28,855 nt of DNA from Clostridia bacterium (lineage in GTDB: Bacteria > Bacillota > Clostridia > Christensenellales > Aristaeellaceae): positions 3,146 to 32,000 of the forward strand of contig JAUNDF010000011.1 in assembly GCA_030526225.1 (NCBI GenBank), written 5' to 3'. Within the stretch, counting starts at the first letter, position 1. Every line of letters starts with the position of its first letter. Of the stretch, positions 3 to 25,353 are shown piece after piece. Under the pieces are notes generated by a model, which saw only the letters and a program-made list of their open reading frames with translations, was not told where the DNA came from and ran no database searches. Made by a program: the position numbers and the translations under genes.

Positions 3-1526
3 GATGTATCCTTCCGGTACATTTCCCAGGGCAAAACGCTGTATCATTCTGCCGGAGACGGCAAGCTGGAATCGGCGGTATACAGCATCTACGGCAAGGA
101 AATGATTCGCTCCATGCGGCGCGTTCACGGCCATCTGAACGGTGTGCTGATGGACGGCTTTGTGGGCATCGGGGAAGGGGCACGGAGCAATCATGCGCAT
201 CAGTCCTTCTTTATCAACGGCCGATACATGAAGAGCAATCTGCTTTCCATATCGGTGGATGCCGCCTGCCGTGAGCGGGTGATGATTGGCAAATATCCGT
301 CCTGTGTCCTGCATCTGACCATGCCTTATGATGTGGTGGATGTCAATGTGCACCCGAATAAACTGTAGGTGCGCTTTCAGGATGAGCAGGGCATTGCCGA
401 GGCAGTGGAAACCATCGTCCGGGAAGCTCTGCAGGATCGGGATGCATTGGAGCGCCCAACCCAGATGGTACTCTGTAAGGAACCGGAAACAAAGCCTGTT
501 GCTGCAACAGTGACCAAACAGCCGGTGATTGCGGCTGCTTCTGTGAAACCGACTGTTCCAACGATTACTCCCACAGCGTCTGTCCCTGTTGCATCAAAGC
601 CGACAGAACAGCAGAATGCTGTTGCTCCTGCTGTAAAAATGACAGTGCAGCCAGCTGTGACAGTGACTGCAGCGAAAACGGCCATTCCTTCAGCTGCTGT
701 ACCTGAAACGGAACCGCTCAAGCCTGCGGCGGTTACGGATAATCCTGCTGCAGCAGCGAAACAGGAGACGGAAACCGAACAGGTTCGTCCCTTTGCACCC
801 ATTGCCTACGCATCATCTGTTGTGAAAAATACTTCCGATGCTGTAGCGCAGTATATGGCAAGCACGGTATTACCGGAAACAAGCGGCTGGGCCAAAAAAG
901 AAATGCCCGCCGTGCAGACGGAGCAGCTTTCTTCTCTGACAGAAGAGCAGAAAAAGCCCCTCCGGCTGATTGGCACAGTATTCAACACCTTCATTCTGGT
1001 GGAATATGAAGAGCATCTGCTGATGATTGACCAGCATGCCGTTCACGAGCGCTTGCTGTTTGACCGCTTCAGCAAGGAAATCGACCAGAATCAGGCCGGG
1101 CAGCAGCTGCTGATTCCCATCATTATGCAGGTCAGCAGAAGAGAGCAGCAGCTGTTGGAGGCCAACAAGGACATGCTGTCCAAGGTTGGGCTGAACATCG
1201 AACCCTTTGGCGAAAACGAGGTATCCGTGCGCAGCATCCCCATGATTCTCGGTCAGCCGCAAACTGAAGCCTTTGTGCGGGAAATGATAGACCAGCTTCA
1301 AAGTGAACGCGGCACCGTCACCATGGAAAAGCGCCGGGCGTCCATTCTTCAGCTTGCCTGCAAAAAGGCTGTCAAGGGCGGCGATCGTTTGACGGAGGAT
1401 GAAATCCGCGACCTTGTGACACGCATGATAGATGAAAAGGTCACACCCACCTGTCCTCACGGCAGACCTCTGGTGATTTCTCTCAGCCACAGTGAAATTG
1501 ACAAGCGCTTCCGGAGAATTCAATGA
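3..1526 (+). CDS. mutL: DNA mismatch repair protein MutL (5' end outside the window), interrupted by an in-frame TAG at 366-368
   Basis: Frame 3 is open from base 3. It reads ...VDVNVHPNKL-TAG-VRFQDEQ, the MutL HPxKxEVRF motif with TAG at the Glu position. A P/A/T/V-rich linker follows, then the C-terminal endonuclease motif DQHAVHERLLFDR and CPHGRP. The gene ends in TGA at 1524-1526. Confidence 0.9.
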
Positions 1527-5032: not shown

Positions 5033-6007
5033 TTGAGTGATAAAAGAAAAATTTTGCTGGATATAGATTCCATGGATGCGTACAGAGCCCTTTTCGGGCT
5101 CAATGACAGAAACATCGCGCTGATTGAACAGGAATGCGGCGTGACTGTTTCACTGCGCGGAAATGAAATCTTTTTTTCTGGTGAAGCCGATGATATGGAC
5201 ATCGCCCAGGCTGTGATTGAAAAGCTTGTCCGCATGATTCAAAAGGGCGAGCAGGTGGACCGCAGCGGCATCCGGTACATGATTGCACTGGCCCGGGAAG
5301 ATAAGCTGGATGAAGCAGACGAAATCATGAAGTCCGTTGTTGCCATTACACACCGCGGAAAGCAGATTCGCTGCAAAACCTTTGGCCAACAGCAATATGT
5401 CAAATGCATCAAGGATCATGATTTGACCTTTGCCGTGGGTCCTGCCGGTACAGGCAAAACATATCTGGCCATGGCTCTGGCTGTTGTGGCACTGAAAAAT
5501 AAATAGGTGGAGCGTATTGTGCTGACCCGTCCCGCGGTGGAAGCCGGTGAAAAGCTGGGTTTCCTGCCCGGTGATCTGACTCAGAAGGTCGACCCGTATC
5601 TTCGCCCGCTGTATGATGCTTTGTTTGATTTTATGGGCGTTGATTCCTATCAGAAGCTGCTGGAGCGGGGGACAGTGGAGGTTGCGCCGCTGGCATACAT
5701 GCGCGGCCGGACACTTTCCGATTCGTTCATCATTCTGGACGAAGCACAGAACACCACCACCGAACAGATGAAAATGTTCCTGACCCGTATCGGCTTCCAT
5801 TCAAAGGTAGTCGTGACCGGTGACGTAACCCAGACCGACCTGCCCTTTGGCAAAAAATCCGGTCTTGTGGAAGCACTGGATGTTTTGAAGGATATTCCCG
5901 AAATCGGCATGGTGCATTTGACCGCCAATGACGTGGTCCGGCATGAACTGGTACAGCGGATTGTCCGCGCTTATGATCAGTATTATCATAAGGAGGGGGA
6001 AAAGTGA
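5033..6007 (+). CDS. phoH: PhoH-family ATPase, interrupted by an in-frame TAG at 5504-5506
   Basis: TTG start 9 nt after GGAGG. Walker A GPAGTGKT, then [32 protein letters not shown] in the same frame. The joined length of 324 aa is typical for PhoH. TGA stop. Confidence 0.9.
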
Positions 6008-8253
6008 AAGCCAAAAACGGAGTCCGCAGAAAGAATAACAGCTTTAAAAAGAAGCTGCGCCAGTGGGCGAATAGCGTAGATGCGAAATGTACGCTGATTG
6101 TTGTCATCTCCATGGTGATTATCGGCGCTCTGTTCTATGCGGTCAGTTCTCCTGAAAAATACGACCTGAAAATCGGTGCAATTTCCCATTACACCATTAC
6201 TGCCACCAAGGATGTTATTGACGAGGTGACCACCGAGGAAAGAAGGCAGGCGGCTGCCAACGCGGTGGAACCCACCTATCATCTGGAAGAGGGCGTAAAT
6301 GCATAGGTCATGCGCAGCCTTGCCGGTGTACTGAAGGAAATCGGCACCGTGCAGCAATACGGTCTGTCTCTTTTTGATGGCACGGAAACGCCCAAGGAGA
6401 AGCAGGCAAGGCAGTTTACTGCCGATGAACTGGCTTATGCGCGAAAGCTGACCACACAAATCAATCTGACGGATTACCAGCTGGCTACGGTCATGCGCAT
6501 GGAAAAAGCGCAGATTGAGGACATGACCTCTGTCTTGACCACCGTGGTTGAAAACTCACTGAACACCACCATCCGCGAGGGACAGGTTAACCAGTCCATT
6601 GATACCATGCTGCAGATTGCAGGCTACAAGATTGATACATCCCTGTTCCAAACGGTGGTTCCCACCATTCTGCGGACTTGCGTAAAGCCCAACATGGTCA
6701 TCGAAACGGAATCCACCGAACTGGCCAAAACAAAAGCACGGGAATCCGTGGAGCCTGTGATTTACCTGCAGGGCCAGAACATCATCAGGCAAGGCGAACG
6801 GGTCAGTGCAAATCAGATGCAGATGCTCCGCGCACTGGGCTTGATTGATGAAAACCAGATTGACTGGTGGCTCTACGTGGGTGCAATGGGCATGATTGTG
6901 GCCGCCATTGCCGTACTGTTGATTCTGCTGAGTGTATTTTCCTCTGAATCACTGCACGATATCCGGAAGATGGCAGTTATCATGATGGTGATTTGCATCA
7001 CCATGCTGCTCTGCTGCATCAGCATCCGGAGCATCAGCGTTTTCCTGGCACCTATTGCCATTTCCGCGCTGCTGATTACTGCGCTCATCGGTGTACCTGA
7101 AGGCATTGCCGGCGGTCTTTGCACTTCCATTCTGGCGGCAGCGTTTGTGCTGGGTGCACCTAATCCCTCTACCTCTGAGGTAACGCAGCTGCTGGTCATC
7201 GGCGTTGTGGATACCATGGCTGCAGCCCTGTTCCTGAAAACAAAGCCCTACCGTATCAAGGTTGTGCTTTGCGGACTCCTGATTTCCGTCATCGGCTTCT
7301 GTGCCATGCTCTGCGTGGGCATTATGACCAGCAGCAATTCCTCCAACGTGAAGGATAATGCGCTGATGTGCATTGAGTCCGGTATCCTCAGCGGCATTGT
7401 TGCGGTTGGTCTGCAGCCGATTCTGGAGGCGGTGTTTAATCTGGCAACGCCTGCCAAACTGATGGAACTGAGCAACCCCAATCACCCCTTGCTGCGCAGA
7501 CTTCTGCTGGAAGCCTCCGGCACCTATCATCATTCTATCATCGTGGCAAATCTGGCTGAGGCAGCGGCTGAGAAGATACATGCCAATCCGCTTCTGGCAA
7601 GAACCGGCGCGTATTTCCACGATGTGGGCAAAATGAAGCGCCCTCTATATTTCAAGGAAAATCAGATTGGCGATAACCCCCACGACAGAACAGACCCCTA
7701 CGTGTCCGCCGCCATTGTGACTTCTCACACGAAGGATGGTCTGAGCCTTGCGCTGAAGCATCGTCTGCCCAGAGAGATTCAGAAGATTATCGTGGAGCAT
7801 CATGGCAATACGCCGGTGATGTACTTCTACCACAAAGCAAGTCAGCTGGCCAACGGCAAGCCGGTGGATGTCAATGACTTCCGCTATGATGGACCTCGTC
7901 CCAGCTCTAAAGAAAGCGCCATTGTCATGCTGGCTGATACGGTGGAGGCGGCTGTGCGTTCCATGCCTGACCCCACGCCTCAGGCCATCGATGAAAAGAT
8001 ACGTAAGCTCGTTCAGGGCAAGGTGGATGACGGTCAGCTGAACGATGCACCGCTGACATTGCGCGACATTGACCGCATCTGTGTTGCCTTTGCTTCGGTG
8101 CTGAACGGTGCCTTCCATGAACGCATTGAATACCCGAATGTGGAGATTCCCAAGCAGCAGACTGTTTTGCCCGAAGAAGTCAGCATCGACCAGCTGACCG
8201 TAAAGCCCGGAAAAGAAAAGCAGGAGAGGACGGAGAAAAAGCATGAAGCTTGA
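6004..8253 (+). CDS. pgpH: 7TM-receptor HD-domain phosphohydrolase (PgpH/YqfF family), interrupted by an in-frame TAG at 6304-6306
   Basis: GTG start overlaps the phoH TGA. An N-terminal TM and extracellular region is followed by a multi-TM block and an HD domain ([14 protein letters not shown]...YFHDVGK...HHG). The two ORFs 6004-6306 and 6310-8253 share a frame. The joined length of 749 aa is typical. Confidence 0.85.
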
Positions 8254-9133
8254 CTGGTACTTTCATGTGGATGTGGACCCGTCTACCATCTCCCTGCTTC
8301 AAACTGCCGCTGATGCAGCGGTGCTGACAGAAGGCATAGCAAGGCCCTGCATGGTTTCGGTAACCATCTGCGATGATGAGGAGATTCAGGAAATCAACCG
8401 GGAATACAGGAATATCGACCGCGCCACCGATGTGCTGTCTTTCCCTTCTGTGAATTACCCCAAGGGCTTGACCGCAGGGCAGTGCGACAAGCAAATCAAA
8501 ATGGAATGGGATGCCGAAGCCGGTGCCTGTTTCCTTGGCGATTTGATTATTTCTCTGCCGCATGTAAAGGCACAGGCTGAGGAATACGGCCATTCCTTCC
8601 AGCGGGAGGCAGCGTATCTGCTGGTGCATGGTATGTGCCATTTGATGGGCTACGACCATATCGAAGAGGATGAAAGAAAGGTGATGCGTGCCATGGAGGA
8701 AAAGATTTTATCATCCATCGGGCAGACAAGAGATGACAATACTGTCACCGATGAACAGCTGCTTGCGCTTGCTCGTGAAGCCATGCAGCGCAGTTATTCG
8801 CCTTACTCGCACTATCCGGTGGGTGCGGCGCTTCTGTGCAATGATGGCCGTGTGTTTCAGGGCTGCAACATCGAAAACGCATCCTTTGGTCTGACAAACT
8901 GTGCCGAACGGACAGCTGTGTTCAAGGCTGTCAGCGAAGGCGCAACAGAATTCACCGCCATCGCCATTGCCTCAAAGGTATCTGCGCCGTGGCCCTGCGG
9001 TGCCTGCCGGCAGGTGCTGAATGAATTCGCCCCTCAAATTCGTGTGCTTGTTACCTGGGATGGCGGTCAGGGTGAAATGCTGCTCACCGATTTGCTGCCC
9101 CATGGTTTTGGTCCCAAAGACCTGCAATCATAA
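8243..9133 (+). CDS. ybeY: Fusion protein: rRNA maturation RNase YbeY (N-terminal) plus cytidine deaminase (C-terminal)
   Basis: YbeY zinc motif HGMCHLMGYDH is at about aa 130-140. Cdd motifs SPYSHYPVGAAL, NCAERTAV and PCGACRQ are in the C-terminal half. It is a single uninterrupted ORF with a TAA stop. Confidence 0.85.
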   Translation: MKLDWYFHVDVDPSTISLLQTAADAAVLTEGIARPCMVSVTICDDEEIQEINREYRNIDRATDVLSFPSVNYPKGLTAGQCDKQIKMEWDAEAGACFLGDLIISLPHVKAQAEEYGHSFQREAAYLLVHGMCHLMGYDHIEEDERKVMRAMEEKILSSIGQTRDDNTVTDEQLLALAREAMQRSYSPYSHYPVGAALLCNDGRVFQGCNIENASFGLTNCAERTAVFKAVSEGATEFTAIAIASKVSAPWPCGACRQVLNEFAPQIRVLVTWDGGQGEMLLTDLLPHGFGPKDLQS

Positions 9134-10094: not shown

Positions 10095-11255
10095 TTAATC
10101 CATGGTTTCCATCAATTCAACCAATAGCATATTTTGCAAATCCATGCCTTTGCGCGTAAGATGCCAACGCCCATCCTAACAGGCCATAAGCTGGCGCTGC
10201 TCCAAACTGAGCAATTGAGGATAGAAGCAGGTATCCTTCAGGGAAATCTGATGCATGGCAAAAAACTGCTCCTGCGATATCCCTTGATTGGTTCGCAGTC
10301 CAAGCATCAGCGTTTCAAACTGAGCATCCTTTCGGCTGATTGCTTCGCGGGGCAGCTGTGAAAAGCTTTTATTATCCACCATGCTGATATATCCGGCGAT
10401 ATCTGCCGGATTGGTCTGACGATAATACAGGTTCTGTTCATCAGAGCAATACAGCATGGAAGTGGACGAAGCGCCGATGCCAAGGTAGGGAATCTGCTGC
10501 CAATAGCCGAGGTTATGACGGCATTCGTAGCCTTCCAAAGCAAAATTGCTGATTTCGTATTGGTGGTAACCATTCTCCGAAAGCAGCTGCAGACAATGGT
10601 CATACATCAGCCGTTCCTCTTCATCCTCAGGCAGACGAAGCTTGCCGCAATCAAGGTCATTTTTCAGTGGCGTATTTTCTTCAGGGATTAAGCCGTAACA
10701 GCTTAAATGCGTGGGGGACAGGGCAATTGCCTTTTTTAATGTTTCGTCCCATTGTTCAAGGGTTTGTGTGGGCAGGCCAAACATCAAATCAAGATTGATG
10801 TTTCTGATTCCATGCCGTCTGATATCTGTTACTGCCTGCTGCACTTCATCAAAGGAATGAATCCTGCCGAGGATGCGTAAAAGCTCCGGCTGGGCGGCCT
10901 GCATACCAAGAGAGATTCGGTTGATGCCATTTTCAGCCGCAGCATCAAGCCAAGCATCCTTTAATGTACCGGGATTTGCCTCACTGGTGATTTCAGCATC
11001 TTCCGCAATGTGAAAGCATCTCTGCATATCCGTCAGCAGTTTTTTCAGCTGTGGCCCTGTCAACACGGAAGGGGTGCCGCCGCCAATGAATACAGAGGTG
11101 ACAGTCTCACCGGAAAAATGGTTGGAGTAATAGGCCATTTCCTTTTCCACAGCCTCAAGGTAACGATCTGCCATGGACAAAAAACCTGCGTAGGAAGGGA
11201 AATCGCAGTAGCGGCATTTCTGTTTACAAAACGGGATATGAATGTATAATTCCAT
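10095..11255 (-). CDS. hemW: Radical SAM heme chaperone HemW (HemN-like), with an in-frame TAG at 10176-10178
   Basis: CKQKCRYCDF radical-SAM motif near the N-terminus. Past the TAG the frame continues as DGRWHLTRKGMDLQNMLLVELMETMD to a TAA at 10095-10097. That tail matches the usual HemN_C end (...dG..v.LT.kG..l.N.v). The joined length is 386 aa. Confidence 0.85.
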
Positions 11256-13717: not shown

Positions 13718-14464
13718 TTACATACCGGACATGAGCAAATCAAGAATGCCATATTGTTCCAGAAAACCGTAAAGGCTCTGATAGGTGGAAACGGGCAGTT
13801 CCTCCAGCACAGGCAGAGCCGTTTTGATAAATGGCTTCATGATGCGGTTGATGAATGTAAACAGCGATCTGTCATTGACTGACAGAATGTTGAACCCTGT
13901 GGCAGAAGCGGGACCGAAAACAGGGCATTGCGCTTCTTTGACGGTCATGGCGCCGTATGCGGTCAGCATGGGCGTTCCATCCTCTGCCCGAATCTGTGAA
14001 ATGGAGAAATTGTAGCCATCGCTCTTGCCGCTGAAGGCCACATCGAGACCAAGCCCGGATTCTTCCAATGCGGTGCCGCCGATGCGGATATGGCCGCTTA
14101 AATCAAATGTTGTGGGCAATGTTTCAGGCAGACCGTCAGCCAGAATATCAACGTAAAGAACAAGCTCGCCGGATTCGTTGGTAACCTTGGCATCGCATTT
14201 GTACAGGGTAGGGGAGTTGATGTAGTCGATGGTCACCGTGTTGCCGTTCAAATCGGGCGGCAAACGCAGCTGCCAGCTTTCGCTCTTGCCTTCTCTGACA
14301 CGGTCAAAGAGCACCATATCACCCATGGTATAGGTATCGCGGTTGCCGTCAAAGGTGACCAGAATGCCATCTTCGGGGACAACCTGTTCAAACCACACAG
14401 CGGTATTGGAGAGGGCATTCAGGATATACTCGTCAATGCCGGTTTGACTGCCCAACGCTTCCAC
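13718..14464 (-). CDS. Hypothetical protein, probably the C-terminal part of a frameshifted secreted protein
   Basis: 248-aa ORF with only a GTG start and no SD. It overlaps the upstream ORF by 46 nt in the -1 frame. TAA stop. Confidence 0.55.
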   Translation of the reverse strand: MEALGSQTGIDEYILNALSNTAVWFEQVVPEDGILVTFDGNRDTYTMGDMVLFDRVREGKSESWQLRLPPDLNGNTVTIDYINSPTLYKCDAKVTNESGELVLYVDILADGLPETLPTTFDLSGHIRIGGTALEESGLGLDVAFSGKSDGYNFSISQIRAEDGTPMLTAYGAMTVKEAQCPVFGPASATGFNILSVNDRSLFTFINRIMKPFIKTALPVLEELPVSTYQSLYGFLEQYGILDLLMSGM

Positions 14465-15075
14465 ATAATTGAGGAAAGGAATTCAGCAAGATCAAGCAGA
14501 TACCATTTGGGGATGACATGTGTGGTCTTGTCGCGTTCCATGACGTAGTACCAGGCGGCTCTTGTCCAGTCGACCGCCTGCCGCAGGTTGTCATTGGGCA
14601 GGGCCAGGGCAATATACTGCAGGGGCAAATCAAGCCGGGAGTAGGTTTTGATGGCAAATTCAACCAGCCCCTTGTAGTCAATCAACAGAGGCATATCTTC
14701 CCCGAACAGATTGCTCTTGATGGTCCAGTGGGAATCCTCGCCGAAAACCTTCAGGGTGACATCGGCCCGGTCATTAAACCTGAACACCAGATTGGTCATA
14801 AAGGAAGGACCGTAGCTGTCCCAAAGGCCTTCCACAGAGACAATATCCAGTGCATCGGCAACGCCGGTCAAAAGCTCCCGATCAGCTTCAGGATACGCCT
14901 GTGCGTTCATCTTAATCTTGCTGTTAAAGAAGAATGCAAATTTCGGGGTATTTTCATCGTAGATATATTCGTAATAATGCTCAGGCATTTGCTCTTCTTC
15001 TGCCAGAGAAAACAGTGGCAGAAGGCATATGACCAGGATAAAAGCGAGAATTCTCTTAAGCTTGTGAGCCATCAT
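14419..15075 (-). CDS. Hypothetical secreted protein, probably the N-terminal part of a frameshifted gene
   Basis: AAAGGAG RBS and signal peptide MMAHKLKRILAFILVICLLPLFSLA. I recognise no family. It ends in TGA inside the overlap with the next ORF. Confidence 0.6.
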   Translation of the reverse strand: MMAHKLKRILAFILVICLLPLFSLAEEEQMPEHYYEYIYDENTPKFAFFFNSKIKMNAQAYPEADRELLTGVADALDIVSVEGLWDSYGPSFMTNLVFRFNDRADVTLKVFGEDSHWTIKSNLFGEDMPLLIDYKGLVEFAIKTYSRLDLPLQYIALALPNDNLRQAVDWTRAAWYYVMERDKTTHVIPKWYLLDLAEFLSSIMWKRWAVKPALTSIS

Positions 15076-20521: not shown

Positions 20522-21085
20522 TTACGCGATGATTTCGGGGTGTTCGCCCTCATCCTTTTCCTGTGCTGGATTTTCGGGCATGGGCGGGAGCTCGTCCAAA
20601 TCGGAAATGCCGAAATGGCTCAGGAATTCGTCGGTGGTTCCATACAGAATCGGGCGGCCCAGGGTATCCTTACGGCCAACCTCTGCAATCAGATTCTTGT
20701 TAACCAATGCCTGTACAGAGTAGTCGCACTTTACACCGCGGATTTGCTCGATTTCGGCCTTGGTCACCGGCTGCTTGTAGGCAATCACCGCCAGCGTTTC
20801 CATGATGGTTTGGGACAGGGATTGCTTTTGTACGGGCTGCAGCATATGCACCACATCCTCGGCATACAGGGCGCGGGTGGTCAGCTGCACATGCTTGCCG
20901 AACTGCTTGATGGCAAAGCCACGCTGATTGTAATCATAATCGCTTTTTAAGGCTTCAATCGCCTTGTTCAGCTCGCCTATGGTGCAGCCGATGGCCTTTG
21001 CCAGGTCATCCAGCCGAACGGCTTCTCCGGCAACAAACAGAATCGCCTCAATCTTGCCCTCAATGGTGCCGTTTTCGTTATTCAT
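20522..21085 (-). CDS. scpB: Segregation and condensation protein B
   Basis: IEAILFVAGEAV...LSQTIMETLAVIAYKQPVTKAEIEQIRGV...GRPILYGTT is typical of ScpB. It overlaps the scpA end by 8 nt. TAA stop. Confidence 0.95.
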   Translation of the reverse strand: MNNENGTIEGKIEAILFVAGEAVRLDDLAKAIGCTIGELNKAIEALKSDYDYNQRGFAIKQFGKHVQLTTRALYAEDVVHMLQPVQKQSLSQTIMETLAVIAYKQPVTKAEIEQIRGVKCDYSVQALVNKNLIAEVGRKDTLGRPILYGTTDEFLSHFGISDLDELPPMPENPAQEKDEGEHPEIIA

Positions 21086-21845
21086 AATCGGTCAGATCTC
21101 CTTCAATGGTTGCCTCTGCCTGACCCGGCAGAAGGATGATATCGCCATAGGTTTCAGACTGGTCGATGTGCATTTGTCCCAGCTTCAGCAGCTCCAGCAT
21201 GGCAAGGAAAAGTGTGACAACTTCTTCCTTGGTGGGTGCTTCGCTGAAGGTTTCGGTAAATGACAGGCGCTCGTTTGTTTTCAGCTTCTTCAGCAGATGC
21301 AGCATGCAATCCTCCACCGTGTGTGAATCGCGATGGATATCACGGGGCGCGTAGTGGTTGACCTGCAGTTCTTCGTCTGCATCGGGCTTGCGCATCCAGA
21401 TGCGCAGGAAGGCCTATGTCAGCCCTTCCATGGTCAGGCCCACCAGCTCAACCTCCTGCGGCGGCAGGGGATACTCTGCCGGCAGCTTGGAGAATGCTTC
21501 CTTGGCGGCAGCTTCAAAATTCTGCATGGCAGAGGCCGTTTCGCGAAAACGCTTGTATTCCTCCAAACGGCGAATCAATGCCTGCTCGGGGTCCTCTTCA
21601 TCCTCAATGACGGGCGGTCTGGGCAGCATGGCGCGGCTCTTGATTTCAAGCAGGGTAGCAGCCATGACCAGAAAATCGGTGGCATCCTCCATGTTCAGGT
21701 CAGATGCGTTCTTTACAGATTCAATGTACTGATCTGTGATTTCGCTGATGAAAATATCCTTGATGTCGATCTTCGCCTTGCCAATCAGGTGCAGAAGCAA
21801 ATCAAGGGGGCCGTCAAAGTCTTTTAACTGGAAGGTCATCGGCAT
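21078..21845 (-). CDS. scpA: Segregation and condensation protein A, interrupted by an in-frame TAG at 21414-21416
   Basis: N-terminal FDGPLDLLLHLIGKAKIDIKDI is typical of ScpA. ORFs 21414-21845 and 21078-21395 share a frame. The junction reads LTMEGLT-TAG-AFLRIWMRKPD. The joined length of 255 aa is typical. TAA stop. Confidence 0.9.
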
Positions 21846-23568: not shown

Positions 23569-23576
23569 ACGATTTA

Positions 23577-23602
23577 GATCGGGTTGCTGCCCGGTCTTTT
23601 TT
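23577..23602 (+). terminator. Rho-independent terminator after the methyltransferase gene
   Basis: Stem GATCGGG / CCCGGTC (one G-U pair), 6-nt loop, TTTTTT. Confidence 0.6.
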
Positions 23603-25001
23603 ATTGCAATGCCTGATAGAGGATATCAAACAGCTGGGGCAGTGCGTTTTCATCAACAGATGAATAGTCTATCACAAATTGACCGTTCGGCGCTTCAGCG
23701 GGATTTGCATAATAGGATGAAAGGGGGATGATTTTGATTTTTGCCTTTTCTGCACGCTGTACAACCTAAGCGTCGGTCAGGCGGGTGTTGAGCCGGAGAA
23801 TAAAATGGAAACCGGCATCCTTCTCTTCAATAGATGAAATGCTTTTTAGGGAAGAGGCGTTGAACAGATTGAGGATTCGTTCCCGTCTGGAACGGTATTG
23901 CTTTCTGACACGATGAATATGCCGGTCAAAATGTCCGCGCTTGATAAACATGGCCAGCGTGTATTGCTCCAGATTGGAAACGCTGCAGCTGTAGAAAGAC
24001 AGCTTCTTTCTGTAAGCCTCCATGAGTGATTCGGGAAGCACCATATAGCTGATGCGGATGGTGGAGGACAGCGTTTTGGAAAAGGTGTTCATATAAATAA
24101 CGCGATTGCTCTGGTCAATGCTTTTCAACGCTGGGATGGGGCGGCCGGTCAATCGCAGCTCGCTGTCGTAATCATCCTCGATGATGAACCGGTTGTTTGC
24201 CTGACTGGCCCACTGAAGAAGGGCAAGTCTGCGGCTGTACGGTGTAACAAGCCCGGTGGGGAAGTGATGGGCAGGGGAAATGTGGACAACAGCCGCTTCA
24301 GAGCTGGCTAATTGACTGATGCTGATGCCCTGCTCATCCAGATTGATTGGAATACACTTTGCCCGGTGACTTTCATAGACCTTCCTGATTTTTGAATAAC
24401 CAGGGTTTTCCACGGCGTACAGCAAGTCATTGCCCAAAAGCTGTACCAGAATGCTGTACAGATAATCTGTACCGGCACCGACGATAATCTGCTCGGGAGA
24501 AGCGTGGATGCCGCGGTATGATTCAAGGTGCTCGGCAATGGCCTGCCGAAGTTCAAAGATGCCTTGTCCGGGTGAAACGGAAAGAAGCTCCTTCTGGCAG
24601 GTGGACAGAACTTCCCGCGTAAGCTTTGACCACAGCGAAAAGGGAAAAACGCTGGCACTGATTTTGTTGCTGGTCAAGTCTGCAAGATAAGTTGTTTCAA
24701 CAGTGGCAGTCTCAGAGACAGCGGCAGTGGAGGGAATTCCGGCTGTGCCATGTTCGCAGGAAATGTCGGCAACAAAATAGCCTTTCTTCTCAATGGCATA
24801 TATATATCCTTCCGACAGCAGCTGGGCATACGCGTTGGCGATTGTAATCACGCTGACACTGTTAGCCTCTGCCATGGCACGCTTGGAGGGCAGCTTTTCC
24901 GAGGCCTTCAGCTTGCCGGAAAGAATATCCTGCCTGATGCAAAGATAGATGTATTCAAACAGCGGCTTTGAACCGCGCAGCTCCATGTTGTAGGTAAGCA
25001 T
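23601..25001 (-). CDS. MocR/PdxR-family regulator (GntR HTH fused to an aminotransferase-like domain), with an in-frame TAG at 23766-23768
   Basis: ATG at 25001 lies 8 nt after GAGG. The HTH region reads LPSKRAMAEANSVSVITIANAY, and the aminotransferase fold carries FSKTL. After the TAG the frame continues as VVQRAEKAKIKIIPLSSYYANPAEAPNGQFVIDYSSVDENALPQLFDILYQALQ to a TAA at 23601. That is a typical C-terminus for this family. The joined length is 466 aa. Confidence 0.85.
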
Positions 25002-25041
25002 GGTCAACCTCACAAAGCAGAAGTGGGGGAGTATTGATATG

Positions 25042-25073
25042 AAAAAAGAACTCTTCGCGAATGAAGAGTTCTT
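25042..25073 (-). terminator. Rho-independent terminator after the distal tRNA-Met
   Basis: On the minus strand: AAGAACTCTTC, 6-nt loop, GAAGAGTTCTT, then TTTTTT. Confidence 0.7.
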
Positions 25074-25077
25074 TTCG

Positions 25078-25151
25078 TGGCTCCGATTGGACTCGAACCA
25101 ATGACACTCCGGGTATGAACCGAATGCTCTAGCCAACTGAGCTACGGAGCC
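25078..25151 (-). tRNA. tRNA-Met (CAT), elongator type, CCA not encoded
   Basis: The reverse complement GGCTCCGTAGCTCAGTTGGCTAGAGCATTCGGTTCATACCCGGAGTGTCATTGGTTCGAGTCCAATCGGAGCCA folds as a cloverleaf with anticodon loop TTCATAC. A lysidine-modified tRNA-Ile2 cannot be fully excluded from sequence alone. Confidence 0.8.
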
Positions 25152-25161
25152 ATATTTGATT

Positions 25162-25193
25162 AAAAAAGAAAGAACTCTTTGAAAAGAGTTCTT
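25162..25193 (-). terminator. Terminator-like hairpin between the two tRNA-Met copies
   Basis: On the minus strand: AAGAACTCTT, 4-nt loop, AAGAGTTCTT, then TCTTTTTT. Confidence 0.6.
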
Positions 25194-25197
25194 AAAG

Positions 25198-25271
25198 TGG
25201 CTCCGATTGGACTCGAACCAATGACACTCCGGGTATGAACCGAATGCTCTAGCCAACTGAGCTACGGAGCC
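25198..25271 (-). tRNA. tRNA-Met (CAT), second identical copy
   Basis: The 74 nt are identical to 25078-25151. Confidence 0.8.
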
Positions 25272-25277
25272 ACAAAA

Positions 25278-25353
<76 letters not shown>

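Follow-up and report, generated by a model that had tools for sequence, protein, structure and literature searches.

In a 28,855-nucleotide stretch of the Clostridia contig JAUNDF010000011.1 (hereafter the window, 28.9 kb), the gene for a MocR-family regulator is interrupted by an in-frame TAG when translation table 11 is applied. Comparison with homologues indicates that TAG is probably translated in this organism, most likely as glutamate (Glu), and that MocR would be made at full length. The gene is one of six conserved genes in the window that each carry a single in-frame TAG, and none of the genes there ends in TAG. A wider reading is put forward more tentatively: the contig may represent the first known bacterial lineage with UAG reassigned to a canonical amino acid (glutamate), a Christensenellales-like member of the Clostridia from gut or rumen at an early stage of codon capture.

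The MocR reading frame continues past TAG

The MocR gene has its ATG at position 25001 on the minus strand, preceded by a GAGG ribosome-binding site. Its table-11 product is 411 amino acids (aa) long and ends in RLNTRLTDA, directly before a TAG at codon 412 (23766..23768, minus strand; context GCT TAG GTT). The same frame then runs on for 54 codons (23604..23765, minus strand) to a TAA at 23601..23603 (minus strand), which would be the functional stop if TAG is decoded; the full-length gene would then occupy 23601..25001 (minus strand), with 466 codons plus TAA. The translation of the extension is VVQRAEKAKIKIIPLSSYYANPAEAPNGQFVIDYSSVDENALPQLFDILYQALQ, exactly as in a preliminary description made from the DNA alone, which had proposed that reading through TAG restores a complete fold-type-I aminotransferase C-terminus. 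That description also had the stop abutting a convergent terminator, and the TAA is indeed located inside the T-tract of a plus-strand hairpin (23576..23597) that ends a convergent SpoU-type methyltransferase gene.

The domain content identifies the protein as a bona fide MocR-family regulator. A GntR-type winged helix-turn-helix (PF00392, 44 bits, profile positions 4-64 of 64) covers residues 17-77 (24771..24953, minus strand), and an aminotransferase class I/II-like domain (PF00155, Aminotran_1_2, 56 bits in the extended protein) covers residues 136-431 (23709..24596, minus strand) and spans the TAG. The second match grows from profile positions 32-299 of 361 in the truncated protein to 32-337 in the extended one. 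Residue K309 in the NTFSKT motif (codon 24075..24077, minus strand) is a candidate for the pyridoxal phosphate-binding lysine, a role that we presume from what is known of GabR and PdxR; N305, T306, F307 and K309 are invariant in an alignment of 117 homologues.

The extension was compared with a profile hidden Markov model (HMM) made solely from the C-terminal columns of these 117 MocR homologues. It scored 63.9 bits (E = 3e-22), compared with 7.3 bits for the best of 2000 shuffled sequences, so the alignment to homologues on which the preliminary description had made its proposal depend is present. Homologues of 463-470 aa align over the entire extended protein (100% coverage), and 43 of the 117 end at the very same residue. 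All of L427, S428, Y430, Y431, Y446 and S447 are kept, and these positions are invariant or nearly so among homologues. Identity between the extension and the homologues is 0.32, compared with 0.37 among the homologues themselves (53% and 63%, respectively, for the part upstream of TAG); the extension is therefore as conserved as this C-terminal region ever is. By these comparisons it is clearly homologous to the C-termini of these MocR homologues.

Structural comparisons point the same way. Alignments to the solved structures of PdxR (7PQ9) and GabR (4N0B) run through the TAG up to MocR residue 455-457. An AlphaFold model of the extended protein has a mean predicted local distance difference test score (pLDDT) of 87, with values of 89-95 in the extension; the linker is about 40 residues long, and pLDDT falls below 50 at residues 82-102. 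The modelled extension comprises three helices (H414-419, H427-430 and H451-465) and one strand (E441-445), which is predicted to adjoin strands 389-392 and 399-404 of the small domain. In the model, the 411-aa product would be left without this strand and the three helices of the small domain, and it is unlikely to fold. The HMM score, the structural alignments and the confident model together bear out the proposal that read-through of TAG would complete the fold-type-I domain.

The first half of the family name given in the preliminary description, MocR/PdxR, is upheld by the combination of GntR and aminotransferase-like domains. The second half, PdxR, is not established, because there are no pdx genes nearby and the solved PdxR structure matches only slightly better than GabR (318 bits for 7PQ9, 297 bits for 4N0B). 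The neighbours are tRNA-Met genes, esterases and the SpoU methyltransferase gene, and the window annotation has neither pdxST nor gabTD adjoining the gene. The protein thus resembles GabR and PdxR in its winged helix-turn-helix, its linker, its lysine-bearing fold-type-I domain, its total length and its C-terminal end, and differs from them in the TAG at codon 412, in the lack of pdxST or gabTD nearby, and in that its closest homologues are only about 50% identical; in the protein collections searched, none other than the protein itself exceeded about 55%.

Three top matches for MocR and PhoH (P0002, P0003 and P0121) are oversized (628, 528 and 496 aa) and carry the same sequence duplicated internally. 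They probably arose as artefacts of assembly in ENA metagenomes and, with identities of about 48-55%, were rejected as close relatives.

Six conserved genes each carry a single in-frame TAG

Pfam annotation of the whole window (27 genes, 8987 codons) gave a gene set typical of a Clostridia chromosome, with mutL, miaA, a methionine-gamma-lyase-like gene, azlCD, phoH, a pgpH-like 7TM-HD gene, a ybeY-cdd fusion, era, hemW, lepA, scpAB, an M50 protease gene, three tRNA-Met genes and others. Six of the 27 genes, those for MutL, PhoH, the PgpH-like protein, HemW, ScpA and MocR, carry exactly one in-frame TAG each, and all six TAGs lie inside Pfam matches that continue past them. This amounts to 0.7 in-frame TAGs per 1000 codons; in-frame TAA, in-frame TGA and frameshifts are all absent from the 27 genes.

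The MutL TAG is codon 122 (366..368, plus strand; VDVNVHPNKL*VRF, the asterisk marking TAG), within a DNA_mis_repair match over residues 27-143. The PhoH TAG (5504..5506, plus strand) is crossed by a match to the complete PhoH profile (positions 1-205 of 205, 322 bits). In the PgpH-like 7TM-HD gene, which runs from a GTG start at 6004 to a stop at 8253, the TAG lies at 6304..6306 (plus strand) within a 7TMR-HDED match over positions 1-224 of 224. The gene for the HemW/HemN-like radical SAM protein (11255..10095, minus strand) has its TAG at 10176..10178 (minus strand), inside a HemN_C match over positions 1-67 of 67. In ScpA (gene 21845..21078, minus strand), the TAG is codon 144 (21414..21416, minus strand; GLT*AFLRIW), within an SMC_ScpA match over residues 20-236.

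Gene calling with table 11 affects these loci in different ways. In the table-11 list of open reading frames (ORFs), PhoH is split into pieces of 157 and 166 aa. The GTG start of the PgpH-like gene overlaps the PhoH TGA (GTGA, 6004-6007, plus strand) and is preceded by AGGAGGGGGA; table-11 callers would instead start this gene at the ATG at 6310, just past the TAG, and the N-terminal membrane anchor would be lost.

The sequence 3' of the TAGs is intact, and purifying selection on it is evident for PhoH, ScpA and PgpH, in which the nonsynonymous rate (dN) lies far below the synonymous rate (dS) in comparison with the nearest relatives (dN/dS values of 0.09/1.4, 0.32/1.3 and 0.39/1.6, respectively). 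The hallmarks of pseudogenes, several mixed lesions and relaxed selection, were looked for in these genes and not found. The 27 genes end in TAA (20) or TGA (7) and never in TAG; in 80 Bacillota loci, TAG is the stop in 22% of LepA genes and in 14% of those for HemW.

The base after TAG is G at all six sites (TAGGTG, TAGGTG, TAGGTC, TAGGAT, TAGGCC and TAGGTT), and at four of them the next two bases are GT. With either the 35% of codons that start with G or the 43% of GAG codons that precede a G as the baseline, six of six would arise by chance with a probability of about 0.002-0.007. The tetranucleotide TAGG is not itself enriched in the window (66 occurrences, compared with 60 of TAGA and 64 of TAGC). 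The shared G could reflect a preferred decoding context or a mutational context.

Because six unrelated conserved genes carry an in-frame TAG and none ends in TAG, the cause appears to be decoding of TAG throughout the organism rather than a recoding signal in MocR, and read-through would not be a property specific to this gene.

Glutamate is the most likely meaning of TAG

The residue at each TAG was assessed from the aligned homologues. In MutL the TAG coincides with the Glu of the HPxKxEVRF motif; all the solved MutL structures aligned (9N2K and the E. coli MutL entries) have E at this position. The PhoH column is E in all relatives, and in the 81%-identical group the codon is GAG with identical flanks. 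At the ScpA site, the four closest homologues that reach it have E, and the related locus L090 reads GAG GCC where the window reads TAG GCC. The remaining columns are more variable: at the MocR site the 117 homologues have E in 40, D in 20, Q in 13, V in 13 and T in 10; in HemW, E is the plurality with 8 of 49; and the PgpH site lies in a variable stretch, with S in a 53%-identical relative. Glutamate is thus found at three of the three sites where close homologues agree (MutL, PhoH and ScpA) and as the plurality at MocR and HemW, among six sites in total, and the relative's codon is GAG at both sites where it can be read (PhoH and ScpA).

The window contains 217 GAG, 380 GAA and 281 CAG codons. 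GAG accounts for 217 of the 1407 codons that are one-step neighbours of TAG, and if TAG arose at random from these neighbours, three Glu at three sites would be expected with a probability of about 0.004. In-frame GAG codons followed by G persist at 94 positions in the window.

Close relatives and a possible route to sense TAG

Relatives were represented by loci of LepA relatives (L085-L088), of a human-gut species (L082-84) and of Logan contigs (L090/91). The best LepA relatives, from metagenome-assembled genomes (MAGs) labelled Clostridia and Christensenellaceae, are 87-89% identical; among GTDB representatives the best is 83% (rumen MAG RUG199). Loci L082-84 belong to a widespread human-gut species whose PhoH is 81% identical and whose gene order is likewise phoH–pgpH–ybeY/cdd–era, and L090/91 share the M50–scpA–scpB order of the window.

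TAG is scarce as a terminator in these close relatives, where it ends about 2 of 90 called genes. The figure for other Bacillota loci is about 19%, and termination in TAG is normal in more distant relatives (LepA 73-76% identical). In L088, TGA ends 14 of 14 genes. The G+C content of the window is 0.515, compared with 0.57-0.62 in the nearest relatives, and the lineage is therefore markedly A+T-shifted relative to its kin. This distribution suggests that the depletion of TAG terminators took place at the level of the clade and predates the sense TAGs. A succession from few TAG terminators through an A+T shift to sense TAGs would fit the codon-capture route.

These observations can be joined into a proposed mechanism. 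The ancestral clade would already have nearly dropped TAG as a terminator, the lineage of the window would then have shifted toward A+T, and GAG-to-TAG changes would have accumulated as silent substitutions, through codon capture or an ambiguous intermediate. We infer that a CUA-anticodon tRNA, probably derived from tRNA-Glu, reads TAG, and that release factor 1 (RF1) has been lost or outcompeted. TAG would then be read as an amino acid, most likely glutamate, instead of as a stop, giving a complete 466-residue MocR with its GntR domain, linker and full aminotransferase-like effector domain. All of the observations can be accommodated by this reading.

Several points weigh against it. A tRNA scan of the window and 11 related loci found no tRNA with a CUA anticodon. 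In-frame TAG was not found in the genes that L082-L088, L090 and L091 share with the window (LepA 87-89% and ScpA 75-77% identical). A relative closer than these was not found in the collections searched, nor was the trait found to be shared within a clade; it therefore has no phylogenetic replicate and depends on one contig of 28.9 kb. The scarcity of TAG terminators is clade-wide and not specific to this organism, so that it is a weak sign when taken alone, and L087 does end one real gene in TAG (the other TAG-ended gene among the relatives looks non-coding). Finally, a formal inference of the code would need more than six sites, and the PgpH and HemW columns are uninformative.

The gene for RF1, prfA, is absent from the 28.9-kb window. 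An Rfam scan of the window returned only three tRNAs. All three belong to a cluster directly upstream of MocR (25040-25353, minus strand), which consists of an initiator-like tRNA-Met and an identical pair of CAU-anticodon tRNAs. A near-identical AAGAACTCTT…AAGAGTTCTT hairpin with a T-run follows each member of the pair, so that the unit of tRNA and hairpin is a tandem duplication. The pair would be either elongator tRNA-Met or tRNA-Ile2 (lysidine).

Alternative explanations

The alternative that survives best, although we consider it unlikely, is that the TAGs are real nonsense mutations in a lineage that is gathering pseudogenes, perhaps a mutator. MocR would then be a non-functional 411-aa protein, and its extension an undecayed fossil. 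By default, Clostridia are assigned table 11, the relatives follow the standard code with no in-frame TAG, and no suppressor tRNA was seen in the window or related loci. MutL itself is among the interrupted genes, as a mutator would have it, and a TAG at the same MutL Glu in an unrelated high-GC contig (L089) shows that such single events occur. The pattern of the lesions nevertheless fits this explanation poorly. All six are TAG, with no TAA, TGA or frameshift, even though GAA (380 codons) offers a larger target for G-to-T changes than GAG (217). There is exactly one lesion per gene, and PhoH, ScpA, HemW and PgpH are housekeeping genes; selection is not relaxed downstream of the TAGs. All six lesions also share a following G. 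The loss of 22% of the genes, including those for chromosome segregation and mismatch repair, with no other decay, is implausible.

Contig L089 was the one match (L089 1-1154, JGI contig Ga0075421_100724192) when metagenomes were scanned for MutL genes that carry TAG in place of the conserved Glu. Its sequence reads VDVNVHPAKS*VRF, and the frame is open to the MutL C-terminus afterwards. This may be a pseudogene or an error, or the organism may be another that reads TAG; as the contig comes from an unrelated organism with 72% G+C, it was set aside as evidence on the lineage of the window.

A second possibility, somewhat less probable than nonsense mutation, is that TAG is a sense codon with a meaning other than glutamate: pyrrolysine, in a bacterial counterpart of Code 34, or glutamine (Gln), tyrosine or lysine inserted by near-cognate tRNAs after the loss of RF1. 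Pyrrolysine systems occur in some Clostridia, TAG is pyrrolysine genome-wide in certain archaea (bioRxiv 10.1101/2024.09.30.615893), and TAG terminators tend to be few in lineages that use pyrrolysine, just as they are few in this clade. In Code 34, however, TAG replaces many codons, whereas here the three informative sites are all Glu, and GAG where the codon is readable; pyrrolysine would also be a drastic replacement for a MutL Glu that all solved structures share. TAG-to-Gln is the usual reassignment in phages, yet Gln is not supported as the meaning of TAG here, because CAG is commoner than GAG, so that sense TAGs should have come mainly from CAG, and still no informative site aligns with Q in close relatives.

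Marginally more improbable again is a sequencing or assembly artefact, in which systematic G-to-T miscalls, through oxidative damage or motif-specific basecalling, turned GAG-G into TAG-G. The TAGG context at all six sites, the GAG found in a relative at both readable sites and the presence of just one contig from the organism in the protein collection are all compatible with this idea. A blanket conversion of GAGG to TAGG can be rejected, because the 94 in-frame GAG-G codons remain unchanged, and the lack of TAGG enrichment noted above argues in the same direction. Random G-to-T errors would also yield TAA and TGA, of which there are none, and damage errors on individual reads are normally removed by consensus assembly. 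Moreover, at three of the six sites the nearest relatives are not known to have Glu.

The weakest alternative, which is very improbable, is gene-specific programmed read-through, with a leaky MocR TAG giving 411-aa and 466-aa isoforms for regulation. In its favour, a G comes directly after the TAG, suppression in E. coli is known to be favoured by a purine 3' of UAG, and the extension is needed for the full fold in the model. Against it, in-frame TAG also occurs in five functionally unrelated genes, the 411-aa product is by the model unlikely to fold, and no RNA structure or Rfam element was found at the MocR TAG in the scan of the window.

Other features of the window

One 296-aa protein (8243-9133, plus strand) is a fusion of YbeY endoribonuclease with cytidine deaminase. 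The same fusion is present in the human-gut relatives L082-84 (301 aa), and the two are separate genes in L081. Two adjacent ORFs of 248 and 218 aa (13718-15075, minus strand), between lepA and a CHAP/PG-binding gene, had no Pfam match.

Comparison with known codes and significance

Recoding of TAG to Gln is described for gut phages of code 15 (crAss-like, Lak; for example PMC9523058). These phages resemble the window in having in-frame TAG in conserved genes, avoidance of TAG as a terminator and a gut or rumen setting. Unlike them, the window is a segment of a bacterial chromosome (tRNA-fMet, lepA, era, mutL, scpAB), the residue would be Glu and not Gln, and the density of TAG is far lower. 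In the archaeal Code 34, every TAG is pyrrolysine and TAG replaces diverse codons with no consensus (bioRxiv 10.1101/2024.09.30.615893). The likeness lies in a sense TAG that would be genome-wide in a prokaryote, in few TAG terminators, and in a loss of coding density so small that annotation is blind to it; the differences are that the window is from Bacteria and that its TAG sites show a Glu/GAG consensus.

UAR codons are read as Glu in peritrich ciliates (code 30) and Blastocrithidia (code 31), which is the same change as the one proposed here for UAG. Those codes belong to nuclear genomes and extend to UAA, whereas TAA is the main terminator in the window (20 of 27). Such eukaryotic codes use tRNA-Glu with a cognate anticodon (PMC12153298).

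Stop-to-sense changes in bacteria are familiar from UGA (code 4 in Mycoplasmatales and others, code 25 in Gracilibacteria/JAEDAM01); in the window the codon is UAG, so that RF1 and not release factor 2 would be concerned. In the classical account of these UGA changes, A+T pressure removes the codon, the release factor is lost and a mutated tRNA captures the codon; the lineage of the window is likewise A+T-shifted relative to its kin. Amber codons can also persist in functional genes through suppression, as in E. coli K-12, where the supE44 suppressor tRNA allows rpoS(Am) to be tolerated. That system differs from the window: Gln is inserted, only one gene or a few are affected, and TAG remains a widely used terminator in the genome.

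The known bacterial stop reassignments are all of UGA, according to PMC8629427 (Codetta) and a 2026 screen of 2.7 million assemblies, whose confirmed or supported cases include no change of TAG in bacteria. In a 2026 preprint, archaea are the only group for which genome-wide reassignment of UAG is described, and our literature searches found no report of UAG reassignment in bacteria. Reassignment of UAG is otherwise known only in phages (Gln), archaea (pyrrolysine) and eukaryotes.

If the proposed reading is correct, the organism would have a new bacterial genetic code, that of a free-living bacterium with UAG as Glu. Annotation with table 11 would then silently truncate or split about one fifth of its genes, and code-prediction tools based on coding density would miss the change, since its effect on density is small. 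Such a bacterium might supply a natural tRNA/synthetase solution for amber decoding, and it would offer a natural early-stage case in which the codon-capture and ambiguous-intermediate models could be tested.

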